Of a stretch of DNA of 20,000 bases, positions 2,630 to 17,297 are shown piece by piece (the stretch's first letter is position 1; every line of letters starts with the position of its first letter). The stretch is from an uncultured virus (IMG/VR IMGVR_UViG_3300025803_000010) (taxonomy: Duplodnaviria > Heunggongvirae > Uroviricota > Caudoviricetes): IMG/VR virus record IMGVR_UViG_3300025803_000010; one strand, given 5' to 3'. The notes beneath the pieces were generated by a model, which worked only from the letters and a program-made list of their open reading frames with translations, was not told the origin of the DNA and did not search any database. A program made the translations under genes and the position numbers.

Positions 2630-2791
2630 TTAAGTTAACCAATTTTTTATCTTCTCCCAGAAAGCACTTATTTTAGTTATATTTTTACCGTTGTGATTGC
2701 ATTTTTGACAATCGCAGCTAGGACAATTTCCAACTGTACCTTGACCAGGACAATGACATACGTGATTACAATTTAAACACATTTTCCTCAT
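2630..2791 (-). CDS. Cys/His-rich 53-aa putative metal-binding peptide
   Basis: Manual translation MRKMCLNCNHVCHCPGQGTVGNCPSCDCQKCNHNGKNITKISAFWEKIKNWLT*; ATGA overlap with the upstream gene and GGAG upstream. Confidence 0.75.
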   Translation of the reverse strand: MRKMCLNCNHVCHCPGQGTVGNCPSCDCQKCNHNGKNITKISAFWEKIKNWLT

Positions 2792-3429
2792 TTTTTTTTC
2801 TCCATTTCGTAAAACATATTATCACTATCTTCAGTAACTAATCCAGAGTCCTCTGCATCCCAATACGTAGTTTGGACTTTATAGTCTGGCCAGCTGTTAT
2901 CAGTAGTATAACTATTAACGTGCCACAAAATGCGATTATTAGGCTGAGCTGCATAATTGCCGTTATCAAGAGCCAATATGTGTGCACACTTATGTTCTTG
3001 AGGAATTTCAGAATGCTCGGTATCCAATATGTTAGTTTCTGGATGAGCCCAGTCAACTGTAAATAAATATTTTCCATGTAAAAACTTTTTATCTAAACCT
3101 CTGTATTTACCGTTTAAACCAGCCAACCAATCAAAACAATGAACAGAAGGATAATAGCTAAAACAATTCCAAAGTTGAAGTTCACTAAGTCTTTGAGTGG
3201 GAACAGTTTCCGGTTGAAAACCACGTTGAATAAAAGCCGAAATTGGGATTCTCCAAAAGCACGCACCGTTGGGTAGCATGATATTAAATAATAACGCACG
3301 GCCTGATATCGATACCAAACCGAAGACAACGCAATCGTCAACTTCGCCTTGATGTTGTTTAAGATCATAAAGGTACTCCTTTCTTACCTGACAATAAATT
3401 GGTGGTATGTTAGCATTTAAATAAGACAT
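2788..3429 (-). CDS. Conserved hypothetical phage protein
   Basis: 213-aa ORF in the operon; aromatic/His/Cys-rich globular sequence with no assignable function. Confidence 0.8.
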   Translation of the reverse strand: MSYLNANIPPIYCQVRKEYLYDLKQHQGEVDDCVVFGLVSISGRALLFNIMLPNGACFWRIPISAFIQRGFQPETVPTQRLSELQLWNCFSYYPSVHCFDWLAGLNGKYRGLDKKFLHGKYLFTVDWAHPETNILDTEHSEIPQEHKCAHILALDNGNYAAQPNNRILWHVNSYTTDNSWPDYKVQTTYWDAEDSGLVTEDSDNMFYEMEKKK

Positions 3430-4177: not shown

Positions 4178-4510
4178 TTATCCGTTCTGTCCCGTTAAGT
4201 TAGGCCCTGAAAATTTATCAGTTAATAAAGTAACTGCTGTTACATTTGTTGCTGTAGATAAATAAAGTCCGTTAGTAAATAGTATTCCATCTTCAGGTAA
4301 TGAAAAATTAATTACGTCTCCAGATGGTACATCGGCTGTAAATAAATTTGTACCACCAGATGAAGATCCCGTATTTAAAGATACTTGACCAGCACCACCC
4401 CCATCAGAAGCAATAATCATTCCTTTAAGTCTTACAGGAGAAGCAATAACCACATTCGATGTTGCAGTTCCCGCTACTCTTGTTGCTTGTATATCAGCTT
4501 TAGCTGCCAT
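4178..4510 (-). CDS. Putative virion structural protein (MAAKADIQATR..., 110 aa); probably a separate gene
   Basis: Has its own AAGGAG RBS and ATG at 4510 inside the 311-aa track ORF; LPEDGILFTNGL motif shared with the downstream paralog. Confidence 0.75.
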   Translation of the reverse strand: MAAKADIQATRVAGTATSNVVIASPVRLKGMIIASDGGGAGQVSLNTGSSSGGTNLFTADVPSGDVINFSLPEDGILFTNGLYLSTATNVTAVTLLTDKFSGPNLTGQNG

Positions 4511-4528
4511 AAAATTCTCCTTTAATTT

Positions 4529-4548
4529 GTGGCTCCCGAAGGAGCCAC
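4529..4548 (-). terminator. C(UUCG)G-capped hairpin (processing/stabiliser or weak terminator)
   Basis: GTGGCTCC-TTCG-GGAGCCAC: perfect 8-bp stem, no strong U-tract, immediately upstream of the RBS. Confidence 0.6.
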
Positions 4549-4557
4549 GATTAATTG

Positions 4558-5113
4558 TTACGCTGCAAATGCAAAATGCACCTGTTACAGCTGCTGCTGC
4601 ACCAGTGAATTCAGTTGCAATTGTCCATGTACCATCTTCAAAACACATGAAAGCAATTTTGCTACCAGTTGTTAAAAGATTAGTTGCTGCATCAGCTGGA
4701 GTGAAAACTAATTGTGTTTCACCTGCTGCTGAAGTATCAAAAGTTACTTCATTTGCTGCTCTTGATTCTATTAAAGAACCAGTCGCCCAAACATCAGTTC
4801 CAGCTGCATTAAAAGTTAAAGTTGCAGTTCCGCCAGCTGTGTCTTTAGATTGAACGTAAACAGCGATCGCACCTTTAGTTGCTGCTGGTAATGCTACAGC
4901 GCATGCTGCTGCACCTGTGTAGTTTACAGCTGCAATAATTCCATCAGCGATAGAAATGTTTGCACCTGTTGCTGTGTCAGCAAAAAGTAAACCTGTTATG
5001 TCAGGCATACCTGAGCTGTATCTTGTTGTTACAGCACCAGTAACAGAATTTTTAACAGCGACTTGAAAGCCACCTTCTGATCTGACCGGTCCTGAAAATG
5101 TAGTATTTGCCAT
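4558..5113 (-). CDS. Ala/Thr-rich putative virion (decoration/fibre-like) protein with an apparent 1-nt frameshift near its C-terminus
   Basis: Begins MANTTFSGPVRS with an AGGAGG RBS. Removing one T from TTTT (4573-4576) gives ...GAFAFAA-TAA at 4558, just before the hairpin and next RBS. Confidence 0.65.
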
Positions 5114-5120
5114 ATTTATA

Positions 5121-5192
5121 TCCTCCTAGTTTTTTGAACATAGTCTCTAGGCCGTCGACTATACGCGTCTATGTTCTAATTAATTGTATAGT
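5121..5192 (-). ncRNA. Candidate cis-regulatory leader RNA (double pseudoknot including the SD)
   Basis: Three complementary pairs in a-b-a'-c-b'-c' order: ACUAUAC/GUAUAGU, GAACAUAG/CUAUGUUC, CCUAG/CUAGG(AGG). Confidence 0.55.
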
Positions 5193-5275
5193 GATTTAGA
5201 TATATAGCAGATTTTAATAGAGTGCAAGAGAACCTTATAAGAAAGTGCGATTTCAGCGATGTAGCGTTTTTTGTG

Positions 5276-5491
5276 TTACGTAGCTACAGATACGTCAGGT
5301 GCAGCGTCTTCTATCTTATTAGTCTGTTGAGCAACTTGTGCTTCAGCTAATTTGATATGACTGATGACTTGTCTTATTTTGTCATCAATCCTTACCATAT
5401 CAAGAGTATATCTTTTCTCCTGATTATAGTGCTGCGACCATTCAAGTTCTAGTCCTCTTTTCTTCGTGTAGAGTTCCTGAACGTGTGTCAT
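5276..5491 (-). CDS. Hypothetical protein (helical)
   Basis: ORF track; GAGGAGG RBS upstream. Confidence 0.75.
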   Translation of the reverse strand: MTHVQELYTKKRGLELEWSQHYNQEKRYTLDMVRIDDKIRQVISHIKLAEAQVAQQTNKIEDAAPDVSVAT

Positions 5492-5678
5492 TTATAACCT
5501 CCTCATAGGTTAACCACAATTTGGATTTACTAGTAAATCCGTCTTTTTCCCAGACTATATCATTTTGTCCTAGTTTGTCAACTAGTGCATTTTCAAAGGC
5601 TTTATCATTATCCTCACATATAAGGTTGAAGATAGCATGATAGCCATATGCTCTGATTTGTACTCGGAAATTTTTCAT
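5442..5678 (-). CDS. Hypothetical protein
   Basis: ORF track; fills the gap after the capsid terminator; 50-nt overlap with the next gene. Confidence 0.65.
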   Translation of the reverse strand: MKNFRVQIRAYGYHAIFNLICEDNDKAFENALVDKLGQNDIVWEKDGFTSKSKLWLTYEEVINDTRSGTLHEEKRTRT

Positions 5679-5746: not shown

Positions 5747-6658
5747 TTAAGCACCTTCAACGCCGAAGATACCTCTGAAGTCAGATACTCCAAATGAGTA
5801 TCTTTCTCTAGCTTTGTATCTTACGTTTCCAGTATCGAAGTCACCTTCCATAGCTGTTTTGATAGGTGATCTATCAAAGTACTTCATTCCATTAGGTATA
5901 TCTGTAATGATGTAGAACGCATCTGTATCTGTGATGTAATTGTTCACTCTGTAACCTTGAGGAACCATTCCCATAGAAACGATTGCATTGATATCATTAT
6001 CAGCTGTTCCTGTTCTACCTTGAGATTTCATCAATCTCTCAGCAGTGAATTGAAGTTCGCTAGGTACAATCATTTTCACGCCTCTTGCAGCAATTTTAAG
6101 ACCTCTTTCGTCTGTCATTGCAGCAATATCGATTAAAGATTGCTCTAGTGAAGTTTCGTTTAAGTCAGCTTGAGTAGCCAATGTGTTCGCAACATTACCC
6201 GCTATTGTTGGGTGAGCTGTATTGAACAATGAAACACCGTCACCAGAAGTGAATGTAGCAGTTGAAGGTAAACCATTGATTAATGGGTTAACAGCTTTAA
6301 CTTGCTTAGTGTTTGACATTGATCTAGCTAATGCTTTTGTATATCTAGACGCAAGTCTATCATACAAATTGTCTTCGATCGCCTCTTCAGTTATTGCGAA
6401 AGCAAGAGCCACAGTTTCGTGTGTGTATCTCGCAGTGTAAGTCTCTTGAGCATTGTCAAAAGCTATTCCACTTCCTTCCGGTTTAACTTGAGCTTGAGCG
6501 AAGCCAGATAACATAACTTCTTCTTCAAACGCTCTGTCTGATGATTCTGAAGTGTATATTTCAGCATGCTGATTTTCGTATCTTTTATATTCCAGGCCGA
6601 ATAGTGCATTCAATCCTGGCTCTAGTTCTTTAACTAGTTGTCCTCTTGATATAGCCAT
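5747..6658 (-). CDS. Major capsid protein
   Basis: 303 aa; MAISRGQLVKELEPGLNALFG start and GDFDTGNVRYKARERYSFG end recognised from marine podovirus capsids; follows scaffold/decoration genes; strong RBS and terminator. Confidence 0.9.
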   Translation of the reverse strand: MAISRGQLVKELEPGLNALFGLEYKRYENQHAEIYTSESSDRAFEEEVMLSGFAQAQVKPEGSGIAFDNAQETYTARYTHETVALAFAITEEAIEDNLYDRLASRYTKALARSMSNTKQVKAVNPLINGLPSTATFTSGDGVSLFNTAHPTIAGNVANTLATQADLNETSLEQSLIDIAAMTDERGLKIAARGVKMIVPSELQFTAERLMKSQGRTGTADNDINAIVSMGMVPQGYRVNNYITDTDAFYIITDIPNGMKYFDRSPIKTAMEGDFDTGNVRYKARERYSFGVSDFRGIFGVEGA

Positions 6659-11872: not shown

Positions 11873-14368
11873 TTAGTCATCACTTTTTCTAACAATAGAT
11901 ACGTTAGGTATCATATCCTTAGCATTTGGTAATGTTTTTGAAAGAATAGTCTTTTCAATTGAAGTATCAGCTCTTAATTTTGCTAATTCTTCGTTTTGAT
12001 CCATCTTATCTTCTGTGTTTTGTTGGTTCATCATCGCTCTCATCTTATCAAGATTGATTCTTTCATCACCTTCTCTCTCTTTTCGCATGTTTTCTTGTGC
12101 TCTAAGATCTAATTCTCTTGCTCTTAACTTAGCAATTGGATCATTATCAAATTGTGAAGTAATTTTCTTCTCTTCTTCCATAAAATCGTTCATCATTTCT
12201 GCAATCAACACAGCTTTTCTTGCATCAATCTTCTGTTGCATCATCATGGCTTGTTGTTGAAGCTGTGGATTCTGTTGTGCCATCTGCATCATCTGTTGTA
12301 ATTGAACTAATTCCTGTCTAAATTCTATTTCAACCTGTTCTTGAGCCATTAAAGAAATATGTTCAAATATATTTTTTTCTAACAACGCCATAACCGCTGG
12401 ATTATTTCTAGCCATATTAGTTGCCATAAAATTTAAGTGAGCTGTAATGTGTGCTCTATGATCTTGACCAGGGAAAGCTTGAAATTGTTTTCCTGCTAAA
12501 GCATCAATGTGTTCTAACGCCGGATCTTTTGGTGTTGGTGGCATAGGTTTAACTAAAACTGAATCTATATTTTTTACACCCAACGCTTCATACATATTTC
12601 TATACGCTGAATACATATTGTGCATTTGAGGATTAGACGTAGCCAATTGCAGTTCCGTCTGAGCGAGGGAAATACGCTGTGTCTGTGAGAAAATATTTGG
12701 ATCTGCAACTGGCAATATATCCACTCGGTCATCAAAGTCAGTTTGTTTTATCATTCTTTGACCACCGACTACGTCGTAAGGATATTCCCGAGGCAAGTAT
12801 AATTTAAATACTCTTGCCATTAATTTAAATTCTTGTTTTAGAGCTGCATAAATTCTTTTGTGAATGGCAGACATAGTTCTGCTGCCTCTTTCCAACAAAG
12901 CTACTGTCGTACCCACTGCCGCTTGTTGATTACCCTCACCTACTTGCAAGTCTGCTATTGAAGCGAATCTTTGACCTGCTTGTACTACGACGCCCATAAG
13001 TCCTAAAAGTGTTTGTGATGGTTCCTTGAAAGGAAGCATCATAAATGAGTCTCTTAAATTACCTCCAGGCGCGTCTACATCTCTAAACTCTCCTGGTTGA
13101 ATACTTTGTGCATCGTCCCTAATTCTAATACCACGCATTTTAAAACCAGCGGGTAAGTTAGATAGGGTTCCGGCATCTAGCAACTGTCGTAATGCAGCTG
13201 TAGCTGTTCTTGATAATCCACCAATCATATGAATTAAACCAAAACCATAAAAGCCAAGTCCTGGTAAAAATTTGAAATGTACAAAATATTGAACTTTACT
13301 TTTTGTAGCATCTCCTACTTCATAATTTCTTTTGATTGATAAAATCTCTCTTGAGTGTTCTTCGATTGTTACAATATACGGAAGTTTAATTCCTGTAGGC
13401 TCACCATCTTCTGGATTAATATCCTGGTAACCTTCTAGATCTAAATTAACGTGACACTCTAATAAAGTAAAAATATCTTCATCTCTTGATTTAGATGTTC
13501 CTTCTAATTCTCTCTCTTTTCTTTGAACTTCTGTTTCGTTAGTGGGTCCAGGTTTAAGTTCAATGTCTTTATAAAAACCTGCTACTTGTTGTTTTCTTAA
13601 TTCATTCTCTGAAACTTTTACAACATGGATGATGGCCTCCGCATCGTCTAATGAGGTAGCCGTATACGGAACAACCAAGTCATCTGCTGGAACAAATTTA
13701 GAAACTGCTCTTTGTTCTGTTTCATCGTAATAAACTTTTTTAAAAGCAGAACCTGCTAAAGGCAAATGAAATAACATTGAATCAAATTCAGGTTCATATT
13801 CTTTCATCTGATCCATGATCTGATAATTCATAAAATCTTTTACACGTTGTGCTTGTTGAACTTTATCTGGAGTTTGTAATCCTAGTAATTGAGTTCTAAC
13901 AGGACCATCACTAGGTAATAATTCTTTGTAAGCTAATGCTTGAAATTGTGTAACCGCTTCTGCAAGTACAGGATGAGTTGCACCACTTGCACCTTGAAAA
14001 GGTTCTGTTCTTTGATCGTATTTAAATCCTAATAAATCTAAACCCTCTCTGTAAGATCTTTCCCATTCTTTTCTAGAACTTCTATATTCTTGATAATTTT
14101 GAGCAAGTGTAGAACCTAATCTTCCTAATACATCATCAGGTAAATGTTCTGCTAAATTATCGTAATGATTTTGCTCTCCTTCAATCGAAGCAATTGCAGG
14201 ATCATAGTTAATATCTACCGAACCGTCTTCGTTCTCTGTAACTTCTATCGGTTCACCTTTTTCATTAAGCTTTTGCTCTTCTTCTTGTTGAGCTAACTCT
14301 ATCTCTTCAGGTGATGGAATTTTTATTTCCTGCTCTACGTTTGGTAGAGACTTGTCTATGTCTGCCAT
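11873..14368 (-). CDS. Portal protein
   Basis: 831 aa, downstream of terminase; P22-like features (GSAFKKVYYD, GFYGFGLI, Q-rich helical C-terminal region). Confidence 0.88.
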   Translation of the reverse strand: MADIDKSLPNVEQEIKIPSPEEIELAQQEEEQKLNEKGEPIEVTENEDGSVDINYDPAIASIEGEQNHYDNLAEHLPDDVLGRLGSTLAQNYQEYRSSRKEWERSYREGLDLLGFKYDQRTEPFQGASGATHPVLAEAVTQFQALAYKELLPSDGPVRTQLLGLQTPDKVQQAQRVKDFMNYQIMDQMKEYEPEFDSMLFHLPLAGSAFKKVYYDETEQRAVSKFVPADDLVVPYTATSLDDAEAIIHVVKVSENELRKQQVAGFYKDIELKPGPTNETEVQRKERELEGTSKSRDEDIFTLLECHVNLDLEGYQDINPEDGEPTGIKLPYIVTIEEHSREILSIKRNYEVGDATKSKVQYFVHFKFLPGLGFYGFGLIHMIGGLSRTATAALRQLLDAGTLSNLPAGFKMRGIRIRDDAQSIQPGEFRDVDAPGGNLRDSFMMLPFKEPSQTLLGLMGVVVQAGQRFASIADLQVGEGNQQAAVGTTVALLERGSRTMSAIHKRIYAALKQEFKLMARVFKLYLPREYPYDVVGGQRMIKQTDFDDRVDILPVADPNIFSQTQRISLAQTELQLATSNPQMHNMYSAYRNMYEALGVKNIDSVLVKPMPPTPKDPALEHIDALAGKQFQAFPGQDHRAHITAHLNFMATNMARNNPAVMALLEKNIFEHISLMAQEQVEIEFRQELVQLQQMMQMAQQNPQLQQQAMMMQQKIDARKAVLIAEMMNDFMEEEKKITSQFDNDPIAKLRARELDLRAQENMRKEREGDERINLDKMRAMMNQQNTEDKMDQNEELAKLRADTSIEKTILSKTLPNAKDMIPNVSIVRKSDD

Positions 14369-14949: not shown

Positions 14950-15828
14950 TTAAACTCCTAAAATTTTTATTAAGCCACCTTTTGCCATTTCCGGCATATC
15001 AGGATCATCATCTGCTTTCTTTAATTTTGTTCCTAGATCATCTTCTACTAAATCAAAAGAATCTTTCTCTAAAAATTCATTAGCTACTTTGTTAGCATTT
15101 TTTCCAGCTTCTTCACCTTCAAAAATTAAACCATCAAGTTTATCTAATTTATTTAAATCTCTTTTATAAACTTCATTGAACACATCTAATGGATTGATTG
15201 CTCTATCTGTTCGACCTAGTAAAGCATCTTTAATTCCTTGAGGTAAATTTAATCTATCATCATTTAATAAAATAGATCTTACTACACCTGCTCTATTCGC
15301 TTCTTCATTTGCACTGTATCTTTTTGCAGCTAGATCTCCTAGACTTTCTTCTTCTGTTCTATTTCTTTTATTAAGTTTAGCAATATCTTCTTTTAAATTA
15401 GCAAAAGATTTCTCATCTGTTTGCGGAGCTCTTTGTTTTAAAGTCATAATACCTTCTTCATCTAATTTCTTACCTGTACCTATATCGATAACATCAGCTT
15501 GAGGTTTTGGTTTCTTTGCTTCTTCAACCGCTTTAATCATATTCTCTGAAACACCTGCTTGTTTCATTTTAGCTTGTTTAAGTCTTTTAGCATTTAATTC
15601 AAAGTTAGCGATCTCATCTGCATTTTTATTAGACATTGCATAAGGACCGTACTCAGCAATTTTATCTTCTATAAATTGTATTGTTTTAGGATCTTCAAAA
15701 GCTTCATCTGAATAAACTTTATAAGGACTAGCCCAATCCATCTTACGAGGTTTGGTTACATTGGATCTTGTGCCAATCATCTTTTGCACATAGCTCTTAC
15801 CAAATAATTCTGTCAATAATTTTAACAT
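14950..15828 (-). CDS. Hypothetical charged helical protein ending in MAKGGLI motif
   Basis: ORF track; TAATG coupling to the terminase gene. Confidence 0.75.
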   Translation of the reverse strand: MLKLLTELFGKSYVQKMIGTRSNVTKPRKMDWASPYKVYSDEAFEDPKTIQFIEDKIAEYGPYAMSNKNADEIANFELNAKRLKQAKMKQAGVSENMIKAVEEAKKPKPQADVIDIGTGKKLDEEGIMTLKQRAPQTDEKSFANLKEDIAKLNKRNRTEEESLGDLAAKRYSANEEANRAGVVRSILLNDDRLNLPQGIKDALLGRTDRAINPLDVFNEVYKRDLNKLDKLDGLIFEGEEAGKNANKVANEFLEKDSFDLVEDDLGTKLKKADDDPDMPEMAKGGLIKILGV

Positions 15829-17297
15829 TAGTAATACGTCCTTTTTCTTTGTGGCATTTCCTCATCCTTATAATCTTCTGGATGATCAATTAAACCACCT
15901 TGTCTAAACCTCATAACAGCTTGTGTCATAGAATCCACAAGGTCATCATGCTCACCATACGGGAAAGCAGCGCATTCTTCAATGACTTCTTTTGCAAACT
16001 CCATATGTGTGGGCGCCCATATCCTCCCTGATTCGAACAGTGGAGAGACTGCGTTAACTCTTGTATGTTTATCATTTCCTTTTGACGGTGTAAAGTTTAA
16101 AACAGGTATTCCCATTTTACGAAGTTCATACGTTAAAGGTAGTCCTGATGCCTTTGATTCAATAACTACAGTTTCCGGATTCCAGTAGCCATATTGTTCA
16201 AGCGCGATTCTACGAAGTTCTGGAAATTCATATCGACCTTTTATCATATCAACTAATATTAATTGTGGACCTGAGTCTTCATCTTTTTGAAACACACCCC
16301 AAGTGGTAATGGCTGAAAAGTCAGCCGTTTGTTTTTTCATAAAAGCGGTATCGTAAGATTGAATGACGTGTTGAAGAGGAGGTAAATCTCCTTCCCAATC
16401 TTGCCACCATTCTCTTTTAATCAAAGCGCCTTCTTCTGATGTTGGGTTCTGCATGTATTGTGCAGACCATTTTGTTGTTGGAATAGATGCTTTAACAGAT
16501 TCTAAATCTTCAAGTTTCCAGAAGCCTGGCCATAGAGGCTGGCCACTTGGCATGATGGCTGGAAATTCTACGACCTCCCATTGATCTGCTCTAGGCTCCT
16601 TTTGAGCATGCATCAGGCGTCCGGCTAAATCTTTCTCATTCCATCTTGTCATTACAACCACAATCGCTCCACCGGGTTGAAGACGTTGTCTTGGTCCTGA
16701 TGTATACCATTCATAAGTTCTATCTAAGGCTTGAGCATTCATTGCATCTTGTTCAGTATGTGGATCATCAATAATTAATAGATCAGCACCCCTTCCAGTA
16801 ATGGCAGATCCAACTCCAGCAGCGTAGTATTCACCACCTTGTTCTGTTTCCCATTTACCTGCAGCTTGAGAGTCCGGATTTAATCTTGTTTGAAATACTT
16901 GTTTATATTCGGGTGAGTCCATAAGTGATTTAGCTTTACGACCAAATCTTACAGATAGCTCGGTAGTGTTTGTTGATTGAATTATTTTAAGTTTAGGATT
17001 ACGGCCCACCATCCAGGCAGGTAAGAAATAAGATGCAAACTCAGACTTAGTATGCCTTGGAGGCATATTAATAATTAATCTTTTAATCTTGCCTTGAGCA
17101 AGTTTATTAAATTTATCAGCTACAATCTTATGATGGGACCCTTCAATAAAATCAGGCCACATGTGTTTAACAAAAGTCAAAAAATCAGATTGGATTTTAG
17201 ATTCTTTTTTCTTTTCACTGTACTTCAGAAAAGTTCTCATAAAGTCTTTCTGAACATCAGGTGGTAACTTTTTAATCTTTTCTAAGTCTATATTCAT
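15828..17297 (-). CDS. terL: Terminase large subunit
   Basis: Walker A variant MPPRHTKS, Walker B LLIIDDP, coupling motif VMTRW, nuclease motifs QSYDTA and HDDLVDS. Confidence 0.95.
   Translation of the reverse strand: MNIDLEKIKKLPPDVQKDFMRTFLKYSEKKKESKIQSDFLTFVKHMWPDFIEGSHHKIVADKFNKLAQGKIKRLIINMPPRHTKSEFASYFLPAWMVGRNPKLKIIQSTNTTELSVRFGRKAKSLMDSPEYKQVFQTRLNPDSQAAGKWETEQGGEYYAAGVGSAITGRGADLLIIDDPHTEQDAMNAQALDRTYEWYTSGPRQRLQPGGAIVVVMTRWNEKDLAGRLMHAQKEPRADQWEVVEFPAIMPSGQPLWPGFWKLEDLESVKASIPTTKWSAQYMQNPTSEEGALIKREWWQDWEGDLPPLQHVIQSYDTAFMKKQTADFSAITTWGVFQKDEDSGPQLILVDMIKGRYEFPELRRIALEQYGYWNPETVVIESKASGLPLTYELRKMGIPVLNFTPSKGNDKHTRVNAVSPLFESGRIWAPTHMEFAKEVIEECAAFPYGEHDDLVDSMTQAVMRFRQGGLIDHPEDYKDEEMPQRKRTYY

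Follow-up and report, generated by a model that had tools for sequence, protein, structure and literature searches.

The 20,000-nucleotide stretch of DNA analysed here (the window) comes from an uncultured virus (IMG/VR record IMGVR_UViG_3300025803_000010) and, as judged by its nucleotide matches and neighbouring genes, represents a pelagiphage of the HTVC023P/HTVC027P type. On its minus strand, ahead of an open reading frame (ORF) at 4178..5113, lies a messenger RNA (mRNA) leader (5192-5114, the 5' bound being the predicted transcription start) in which three helices form a chain of two pseudoknots that reaches the Shine-Dalgarno (SD) sequence. Comparative analysis of 98 distinct homologous leaders leads us to conclude with high confidence that a conserved pseudoknotted RNA exists at this locus. 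We tentatively propose that the leader acts in cis as a 5'-terminal pseudoknot, which would stabilise the mRNA by burying its 5' end and would tune the access of ribosomes.

Three helices in crossing order

Along the minus strand, the leader opens with ACTATAC (5192-5186), the 5' strand of helix a, followed by an A/U-rich loop L1 (5177-5185) of variable sequence that spans 7-17 nucleotides (nt) in the alignment of relatives and has no conserved pairing. The 5' strand of helix b (GAACATAG as DNA, GAACAUAG as RNA; 5176-5169) is joined by ACGC (5165-5168) to the 3' strand of helix a (GTATAGT, 5164-5158), and the joiner CGACGG (5152-5157) leads from there to the 5' strand of helix c (CCTAG, 5151-5147). 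A short AGA joiner (5144-5146), the 3' strand of helix b (CTATGTTC as DNA, CUAUGUUC as RNA; 5143-5136), an A-rich linker (A6 in the window, 5130-5135) and the 3' strand of helix c (CTAGG, 5129-5125) complete the array, which is separated by AGG and 8 nt from the ATG (5113-5111) that opens the ORF. In the RNA, ACUAUAC (5186-5192) pairs with GUAUAGU (5158-5164), the two strands of helix b (5169-5176 and 5136-5143) pair with each other, and CCUAG (5147-5151) pairs with CUAGG (5125-5129). All three helices, of 7, 8 and 5 base pairs (bp), are perfectly Watson-Crick, and their strands (the 3' strand of each being denoted by a prime) follow the crossing order a-b-a'-c-b'-c'. The SD sequence AGGAGG (5122-5127) has its first three bases within c'.

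This chain had been described in a first-pass annotation made from the sequence, whose strands and coordinates proved exact to the base on the minus strand. Among 5000 shuffles of the 72 nt that preserved dinucleotides, 99 contained a perfect helix of 8 bp or longer and 2 a crossing 7+8 pair, while the chained 8/7/5 triple was never obtained. The nested minimum free energy fold of 5100-5200 (-11.7 kcal/mol, z = -0.33) was equalled by 70 of 200 shuffles, a result that is uninformative because the structure is a pseudoknot.

Conservation and covariation of the leader

Homologous leaders were collected through the conserved promoter that precedes them (see below). The 123 promoter matches considered, from among the matches listed, comprise the window and 122 further loci. 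Four of the loci are incomplete and five carry another leader type (L033, L065, L101, L105 and L115). The other 114 yield 98 distinct leaders, extending from the predicted transcription start (+1) to the ATG, which we term class 1 and aligned with MAFFT without any structural reference (alignment A2). The helix strands in this set are spaced by 7-17 nt between a and b, 4-5 between b and a', 6-9 between a' and c, 3-4 between c and b', and 5-8 between b' and c'.

Across the three helices and one extra pair described below, 2057 of 2058 alignment cells form standard pairs, and 12 of the 21 pairs have changed on both sides, in 211 cells altogether. No shuffle among 500 matched the alignment on any of the five measures used, and sliding the 3' partners by 1-3 columns lowered pairing to 20-38%. 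Helix b carries the strongest signal: all eight of its pairs covary, and its 33 distinct variants are each complementary at 8 of 8 positions. Helix a occurs as seven haplotypes, with AU to GC exchanges in four leaders and CG to UA in eight, and is 99.9% paired, the single mismatch falling in one leader. Helix c reads CCUAG/CUAGG in 93 leaders and CCUAA/UUAGG in five, and these five carry four different helix b variants. The extra pair, G5166:C5157 (alignment columns 36:46), links the two joiners that flank a'; it is G-C in 93 leaders, C-G in five and unpaired in none, and it sits beside an invariant pair, C5167:G5156. The crossing of three perfect helices, and the compensatory variation sought for them among homologous leaders, are therefore both borne out, and the chained double pseudoknot claimed for the leader of a probable virion gene is a conserved RNA of the sense strand.

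Proposed pairs also emerge when the structure is withheld. In a structure-blind mutual information (MI) scan over all column pairs, four helix b pairs rank first and the proposed pairs make up 12 of the 25 best, all 12 of them 100% canonical; the others in the top 25 reflect a subgroup split or are neighbours of helix b. RNAalifold, which considers nested pairs only, independently returned helix b. A fourth perfect helix visible in the window, between ATAGTC (5162-5157) and GACTAT (5145-5140), was rejected as unconserved, being 89.1% paired against a shuffle mean of 89.3% and showing no compensatory changes. A further MI scan, covering 105 leaders together with 48 nt of the coding sequence that follows, revealed no pairing between leader and coding region (best MIp 0.13, with no canonical pattern).

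We also considered whether the inverted repeats, lying as they do near a promoter, might act at the DNA level, as protein-binding palindromes or a cruciform, or might have arisen by chance. The alignment contains about 44 G·U cells, which would be A·C mismatches on the opposite strand or in a DNA duplex, so that the structure belongs to the sense RNA and neither to duplex DNA nor to an antisense transcript. The half-sites of an operator would, moreover, be expected to be conserved rather than to covary through 33 always-complementary variants as helix b does, and chance repeats are at odds with the shuffling results given above. We consider this explanation extremely improbable.

As a separate observation, about a quarter of the class 1 leaders, those with CCCUAGGG (L017, L028 and L048, for instance), can form a local hairpin AUAUU...AAUAU (A2 columns 75-79 with 93-100) with the SD sequence in its loop; columns 78:93 are A-U in 69 leaders and U-A in 17. 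The same subgroup extends helix c by G·U pairs (columns 61:79, A·A in 72 leaders and G·U in 23), and its hairpin recalls the GCGC hairpin around the SD sequence of the class 2 leaders described below.

A conserved promoter places the predicted start at helix a

Upstream of the leader lies a conserved block, TCTCTTGCACTCTATTAAAA (5212-5231, minus strand), containing the -35-like hexamer TTGCAC (5227-5222), and 17 nt past this hexamer follows a -10-like hexamer, TATATC (5199-5204). In a three-way alignment the block reads TCTCTTGCRCTCTAYTMAAA and is followed 7 bases on by a TATAAA-like hexamer. An exact degenerate pattern of this promoter occurs in at least 120 IMG/VR loci. Allowing up to three mismatches, the block is found once in the window (5231-5212), and it is single-copy in each of the four records searched whole, namely two complete genomes and two long contigs (HTVC027P, 57.6 kb; 023Pt, 59.8 kb; G002, 53.9 kb; G003, 43.4 kb). 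The nearest virus record, G001 (8.7 kb, 14% complete), contains no match to the block.

Since the -10 position lay outside the search pattern, it could be read in 108 distinct relatives, where it is TATAAA in 54, TATAAT in 16, TATAGT in 13, TATATT in six and another hexamer in 19. Six bases separate it from ACTA (102) or ACTG (5) in 107 of the 108, such that helix a begins exactly 7 nt after the -10 hexamer. Ordinary sigma70 spacing would accordingly place +1 at A5192 in the window, and at the first base of helix a in 107 of 108 relatives, so that the 5' end would be paired. The promoter is sigma70-like, single-copy and nearly invariant, and is among the most conserved blocks of the region. 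It had been described as weak in the first-pass annotation, a label that its near invariance in evolution and its single occurrence in the four records contradict. A simple consensus promoter scan of the window did not list it, because that scan demands a T at hexamer position 6 and the -10 hexamer of the window lacks the final T.

The leader is also represented in public RNA data. Twelve RNA runs contain 0.17-0.26 of the sampled words, and in four metatranscriptomes from four studies many contigs cover the leader and the start of the gene. The summed contig depth in these four runs is 355-831 at 5159-5185, 1-18 at 5186-5212 and 7-34 further upstream; RNA contigs can show neither RNA ends nor levels, and those of relatives are clipped in the variable stretch, so that the drop near 5186 is at most a weak hint of an RNA start. 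Several RNA contigs continue upstream as loose ends, one of them at depth 69.7 with 46 letters beyond 5192.

Other features were noted further upstream on the same strand. A near-consensus sigma70-like promoter (5554-5581; TTGACA, 16 nt, TATAGT, with a TG extension; 11 of 12 matches) lies inside the ORF at 5442-5678 and upstream of a 71-aa ORF (5276-5491). A hairpin spans the stop codon of the latter (5260-5288), with TGTAGC (5288-5283) pairing with GCTACA (5265-5260) and no U-tract following; relatives show compensatory variants (GTGGC/GCCAC in four, TTTGGC/GCCAAA in one), in an arm search biased by picking the best complement. This hairpin may stabilise the 3' end of the upstream transcript or help to process it, and could explain the high level of gp61 transcripts in HTVC027P (see below). 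Many relatives (L003-L122) have a second small inverted repeat between the stop-codon hairpin and the promoter, some 15-35 nt upstream of the block, which varies compensatorily (TTGGA...TCCAA versus TTGAAT...ATTCAA); the counterpart in the window (TCGCTGAAATCGC) forms poorly.

Sister leader classes define the pseudoknot core

The same promoter fronts two further leader classes, ahead of genes whose products begin similarly (MANTTFSGPV in class 1, MTTHFSNGV in class 2 and MAGTHFKGAV in class 3), bringing the total over the three classes to at least 260 loci in IMG/VR. Class 2 comprises at least 120 loci, with 73 distinct leaders among the matches listed, and has no cultured representative in the phage collection. 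Its leaders begin, at the predicted +1, with ACUAAG(A), complementary to CUUAGU on the 3' side of the loop of a 9-bp hairpin. The hairpin is 99.7% paired and six of its nine pairs covary, whereas the helix between 5' end and loop is mostly invariant, 90.3% paired and weakly supported by covariation, one leader (L242) having the doubly changed CUAGGA/UCCUAG. Class 2 has no helix c, its SD sequence lying instead in the loop of a GCGC/GCGC hairpin that was fixed by the search pattern, and it keeps the pseudoknot core alone. Class 3 (24 loci, 15 distinct leaders) shows the full a-b-a'-c-b'-c' order with different helices (ACUACAUA/UGUGUAGU, GGUAUU/AAUACY and CCCAG/CUGGG), again with AGA after c. 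At one class 3 locus (L256) the promoter is a different one, following a terminator-like hairpin, and the leader still starts 7 nt past a -10-like hexamer.

These classes bear on the first-pass proposal that the structure sequesters the SD sequence. That c' forms the 5' half of AGGAGG holds for the window and, as an overlap of c' with the SD sequence, for 91 of the 98 class 1 leaders. In the other seven, the c' strand CUAGG is followed by AAAAGGAG (reading CUAGGAAAAGGA), which sets the SD sequence apart from c', and all class 3 leaders have an AAGGA downstream of, and separate from, c'. Because class 2 lacks helix c and the SD sequence is uncoupled from it in class 3 and in these seven leaders, the core is the 5'-end pseudoknot, with helix c as a conserved add-on. 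The overlap of helix c with the SD sequence is thus common yet dispensable, and blocking of the SD sequence, proposed as the role of the leader, is probably not its core function. What is conserved throughout is the pseudoknot by which the first nucleotides are held in the loop that helix b encloses.

Common to the three classes is a stem-closed loop that has a' at its 3' end, with a spacer of 1-2 nt on the 5' side of a' and 0 nt on the 3' side of a'. The closing stem is formed by C5167:G5156 and G5166:C5157 in class 1, by the 9-bp hairpin in class 2 and possibly by GCU/AGU in class 3. With this geometry, helix a and the closing stem could stack on each other; the short spacer would then cross the deep groove, and the 5'-terminal nucleotide would be sandwiched at the junction.

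The energetics leave room for a different arrangement, in which helix b excludes helices a and c and the choice between the two states is made without a ligand, by co-transcriptional folding, temperature or ribosome load. The two states, a+c (-8.1 kcal/mol) and b (-7.2 kcal/mol), are each nested, mutually crossing and nearly isoenergetic, and such a switch would account for the conservation of all three helices. The loop lengths, however, permit simultaneous formation; the pair G5166:C5157 and the spacers, fixed at 1 nt and 0 nt, would appear geometrically sensible only with a:a' stacked on a closing stem inside b; and class 2, with a and b alone and 0 nt between a' and b', has the design of a true pseudoknot. 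A two-state switch of this kind thus seems improbable.

The downstream gene and a possible protein operator

The 311-aa ORF downstream of the leader combines a protein that is usually 184 aa long, matched by its first ~180 residues, with read-through into the next gene. Over residues 1-169 it shares 94% identity with 184-aa homologues, which end ...GAFAFAA. The break falls near 4570-4575, where the window reads ...GAFCICSVTINRGSFGSHKLKENFM..., a translated intergenic AAGGAG and ATG, and the read-through part corresponds to the next gene (MAAKADIQATRVAG...); the fusion reflects a genuine frame change or else an indel in the assembly. The protein has no Pfam family match, and its sole PHROG match (36974) is of unknown function. 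A tblastn search with the protein (P0001) against the phage collection gave no match, likely through low-complexity masking, as a DNA search did find the locus. An AlphaFold model (AF2) built from a 41-sequence alignment is all-beta (pLDDT 87); its best PDB matches, at E ~1e-3 and TMq ~0.4 weak ones, are the CBA120 tailspike TSP4 in its N-terminal part (E 8e-4, TMq 0.42), the Pa223 capsid spike and T4 gp9/gp10-type domains. From this weak fold similarity and its position, the gene is plausibly a virion gene encoding a spike-like protein of ~184 aa.

Table S3 of PMC12753301, on the infection time course of HTVC027P, assigns the homologue gp62 to the Late class. Mean transcripts per million (TPM) for gp62 at the fifth time point are 12,786, versus 3,456 for gp60, 8,271 for gp61, 3,198 for gp63 and 10,371 for the capsid gene; at the last, gp62 reaches 28,568, gp61, just upstream, 36,186 and the capsid gene 74,585 (PMC12753301). 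This course is compatible with a promoter of its own that fires somewhat earlier, and it also shows plentiful transcription arriving from upstream. The main text of that paper mentions none of the terms 'promoter', 'gp61' and 'gp62' (PMC12753301).

One alternative to a stabilising pseudoknot is a translational operator, at which a phage or host protein, possibly the product of the gene itself, would bind the joiners and the knot, stabilise helix c and set the dose of spike protein. Unpaired bases that are nearly invariant beside a freely covarying helix b would suit a protein-binding site, as would the SD overlap in most class 1 leaders and the single-copy unit of promoter, leader and gene, and phage precedents exist in T4 gp32, RegA and the coat proteins of RNA phages. 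Against this stand the all-beta, spike-like fold of the product, which is not a known RNA- or single-stranded DNA (ssDNA)-binding fold (no known RNA-binding fold occurs among the structure matches of the model), the lack of pairing into the coding region in the MI scan and, in the sister classes and seven class 1 leaders, the absence of helix c or its separation from the SD sequence. We regard a protein operator as unlikely.

A phage parallel is the T4 gene 32 leader, which likewise has an H-type pseudoknot at its 5' end, upstream of an A/U-rich stretch and the ribosome-binding site. There the ssDNA-binding product of the gene binds its own leader cooperatively, while the product here is predicted to be all-beta and spike-like; the pelagiphage knot, moreover, abuts or overlaps the SD sequence, and the two leaders share no sequence similarity. 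The S4 operator of the E. coli alpha operon resembles the pelagiphage leader in being a multi-helix pseudoknot that includes the ribosome-binding region, but it pairs with codons inside the coding sequence, in contrast to the pelagiphage leaders, which show no covariation between leader and coding sequence, and no ribosomal protein gene is present at this locus.

Source phage, host and gene neighbourhood

A distant blastn search of 4178-5500 against 50,697 phage records returned two matches, Pelagibacter phage HTVC027P and phage 023Pt_psg01, both limited to the part that corresponds to window positions 5413-5066. This segment, which runs from a small ORF through the intergenic leader to the opening codons of the following gene, is unusually conserved, given that the flanking protein-coding DNA is too diverged to be matched. 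According to bioRxiv 10.1101/2019.12.14.876532, HTVC027P is a member of the HTVC023P-type podoviruses of SAR11. The neighbouring genes in the window include those for the major capsid protein (5747-6658), an SU10-type portal (11873-14368) and the large terminase subunit (15828-17297). Within the structural gene block, a 213-aa ORF (2788-3429, minus strand) matches PHROG 3704, 'ferredoxin', of the moron/auxiliary metabolic gene category (E 4e-75).

A 22-nt core of the class 1 leader is also present in nine contigs of a genome collection. Three of these are single-cell assemblies, two labelled Pelagibacteraceae and one uncultured Alphaproteobacteria, while the remaining six sit in metagenome bins with assorted labels. 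Each of the three motif-carrying SAR11-type single-cell genomes encodes an RNase E/G-family protein in an open frame of 615-678 aa. Several RNA runs with the conserved leader are labelled freshwater metagenomes (runs X2-X5 and X13), with small shares, and the bins behind two genome-bin matches (L277 and L278) look non-marine. Freshwater SAR11-like hosts may also be infected by relatives of this phage group, and relatives of the leader may occur there too.

Comparison with known RNA families

The Rfam comparison proposed alongside the original description revealed no family that explains the leader: cmscan against Rfam 15 (E<=10, 4900-5500, both strands) yielded five matches, none accounting for 5111-5192. 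All five are to eukaryotic small nucleolar RNA, microRNA or long non-coding RNA families far below gathering thresholds, the best being SNORD12 (22.4 versus 43 bits; plus strand, 5351-5404). We found no published account of a pelagiphage pseudoknot leader in the literature, and of the papers found that mention both pelagiphages and riboswitches, none, judged by title and abstract, concerns this locus. The leader therefore apparently represents a structured RNA family of abundant marine phages that has so far gone undescribed.

The covarying helices around highly conserved junction bases, the compact size (~70 nt) and the inclusion of part of the SD sequence in a helix invite comparison with riboswitches, in that SAM-II, SAM-V of Pelagibacter, preQ1-II and guanidine-III are likewise compact pseudoknots with a conserved junction that mask part of the SD sequence. 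The knot would in that case serve as an aptamer for a host metabolite or alarmone, through which translation of the late virion gene would be gated. No Rfam family matches the leader, however, the aptamer cores of SAM-II, SAM-V and preQ1-II included. The downstream gene, moreover, appears structural rather than metabolic, a late spike-like gene beside those for capsid, portal and terminase with no link to ligand metabolism or transport; the joiner sequences differ among the three classes, arguing against one fixed ligand pocket; and the SD overlap, not universal in class 1, is dispensable in the sister classes. A small-molecule riboswitch is in our judgement quite unlikely.

A broader proposal is that the knot is a sensing RNA, of a new riboswitch or protein-operator class found in one of the ocean's most abundant groups of viruses, that reads the physiological state of the SAR11 host through a metabolite, an alarmone or a phage or host protein and gates production of the virion spike. 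Its binding pocket would be built from the invariant joiners ACGC, CGAC and AGA, with helix c as the expression platform. We consider this proposal, too, unlikely, and the riboswitch-like or protein-binding switch inferred in the first-pass annotation is likewise a minority reading.

Other tasks of a promoter-proximal RNA, such as those of an HDV-like (hepatitis delta virus-like) self-cleaving ribozyme, a processing site or a put-like antiterminator RNA, were weighed as well. HDV-like ribozymes share the strand order P1-P2-P1'-P2', with a P1 formed from the 5'-terminal nucleotides and a crossing P2, and the position of the element directly behind a promoter recalls put RNA. The pelagiphage leader, in contrast, matches no Rfam ribozyme family and has no P3/L3 or P4, its third helix being chained rather than nested. 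In all 98 class 1 leaders, only 4-5 nt (ACGC in the window) separate b from a', the place at which HDV-like ribozymes carry the P3 hairpin with L3 and P1.1. The promoter spacing would, in addition, explain the 5' boundary without cleavage, and gp63, downstream of gp62, is ~3-fold lower, with no strong read-through signal. Functions of this kind appear very improbable.

A 5'-terminal pseudoknot as a candidate stabilising module

Our tentative proposal of a 5'-terminal stabilising pseudoknot regards the leader as a constitutive, cis-acting expression module. Transcription would start from the single-copy, highly conserved promoter at the first base of helix a; the first seven nucleotides would then pair into the loop enclosed by helix b, with the flanking G5166:C5157 pair closing over the a' strand, and the second loop segment, c, would pair with the bases just 5' of the SD sequence, overlapping it in the window. 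With its 5'-terminal nucleotides buried in a stacked helix, the message would offer no single-stranded 5' end to RNase E-type decay by the host and would be stabilised. Helix c, a weak duplex of 5 bp (-4.7 kcal/mol) bordering the ribosome-binding site, would govern how readily the 30S subunit enters.

Paired 5' ends are known to protect bacterial mRNAs from RNase E-type attack, as in the leaders of ompA and of T7 gene 10 (phi10). As predicted for the pelagiphage leader, their structure starts at or beside the +1 of a highly expressed gene (a phage gene in the case of T7), the 5'-terminal bases are paired, a strong SD sequence comes next and the action is in cis. They differ in using a simple local hairpin, whereas here the 5' end would pair at long range into a hairpin loop to form a pseudoknot and a second pseudoknot would reach the ribosome site; the stabilising effect is established for the former and predicted for the latter.

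Several observations weigh against this proposal. The unpaired joiners ACGC, CGAC (the first four bases of CGACGG) and AGA are nearly invariant, beyond what a mere stabiliser would need and as is typical of ligand- or protein-binding RNAs; this is the chief ground for retaining the operator, riboswitch and two-state readings as alternatives. The start at 5192 follows from promoter spacing, and some RNA contigs, as noted above, continue upstream of it; moreover, since the TPM of gp61 late in infection are no lower than those of gp62, many gp62 messages may be read-through products whose 5' end lies elsewhere. That the helices form simultaneously is likewise inferred, the near-equal energies of a+c and b being those of a two-state switch, and 5'-end sensing by the RNase E of SAR11 is an assumption.

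Significance

SAR11, the host group of HTVC023P-type pelagiphages, comprises the most abundant marine bacteria; the non-coding biology of these phages is almost undescribed. The leader adds to it a new structured-RNA family whose covariation support is on par with that of curated Rfam families, and whose architecture is unusual, the first transcribed nucleotides being threaded, as predicted, into one pseudoknot while another, chained to it, lies at the ribosome site. Should the idea of a capped 5' end be true, the leader would be a compact and portable means of stabilising bacterial mRNA; if the knot senses something, it would represent RNA-based control of a late phage gene in a host famous for its reliance on riboswitches. 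Either way, it offers a testable handle on gene expression in a cultured phage-host pair for which RNA-seq data already exist.

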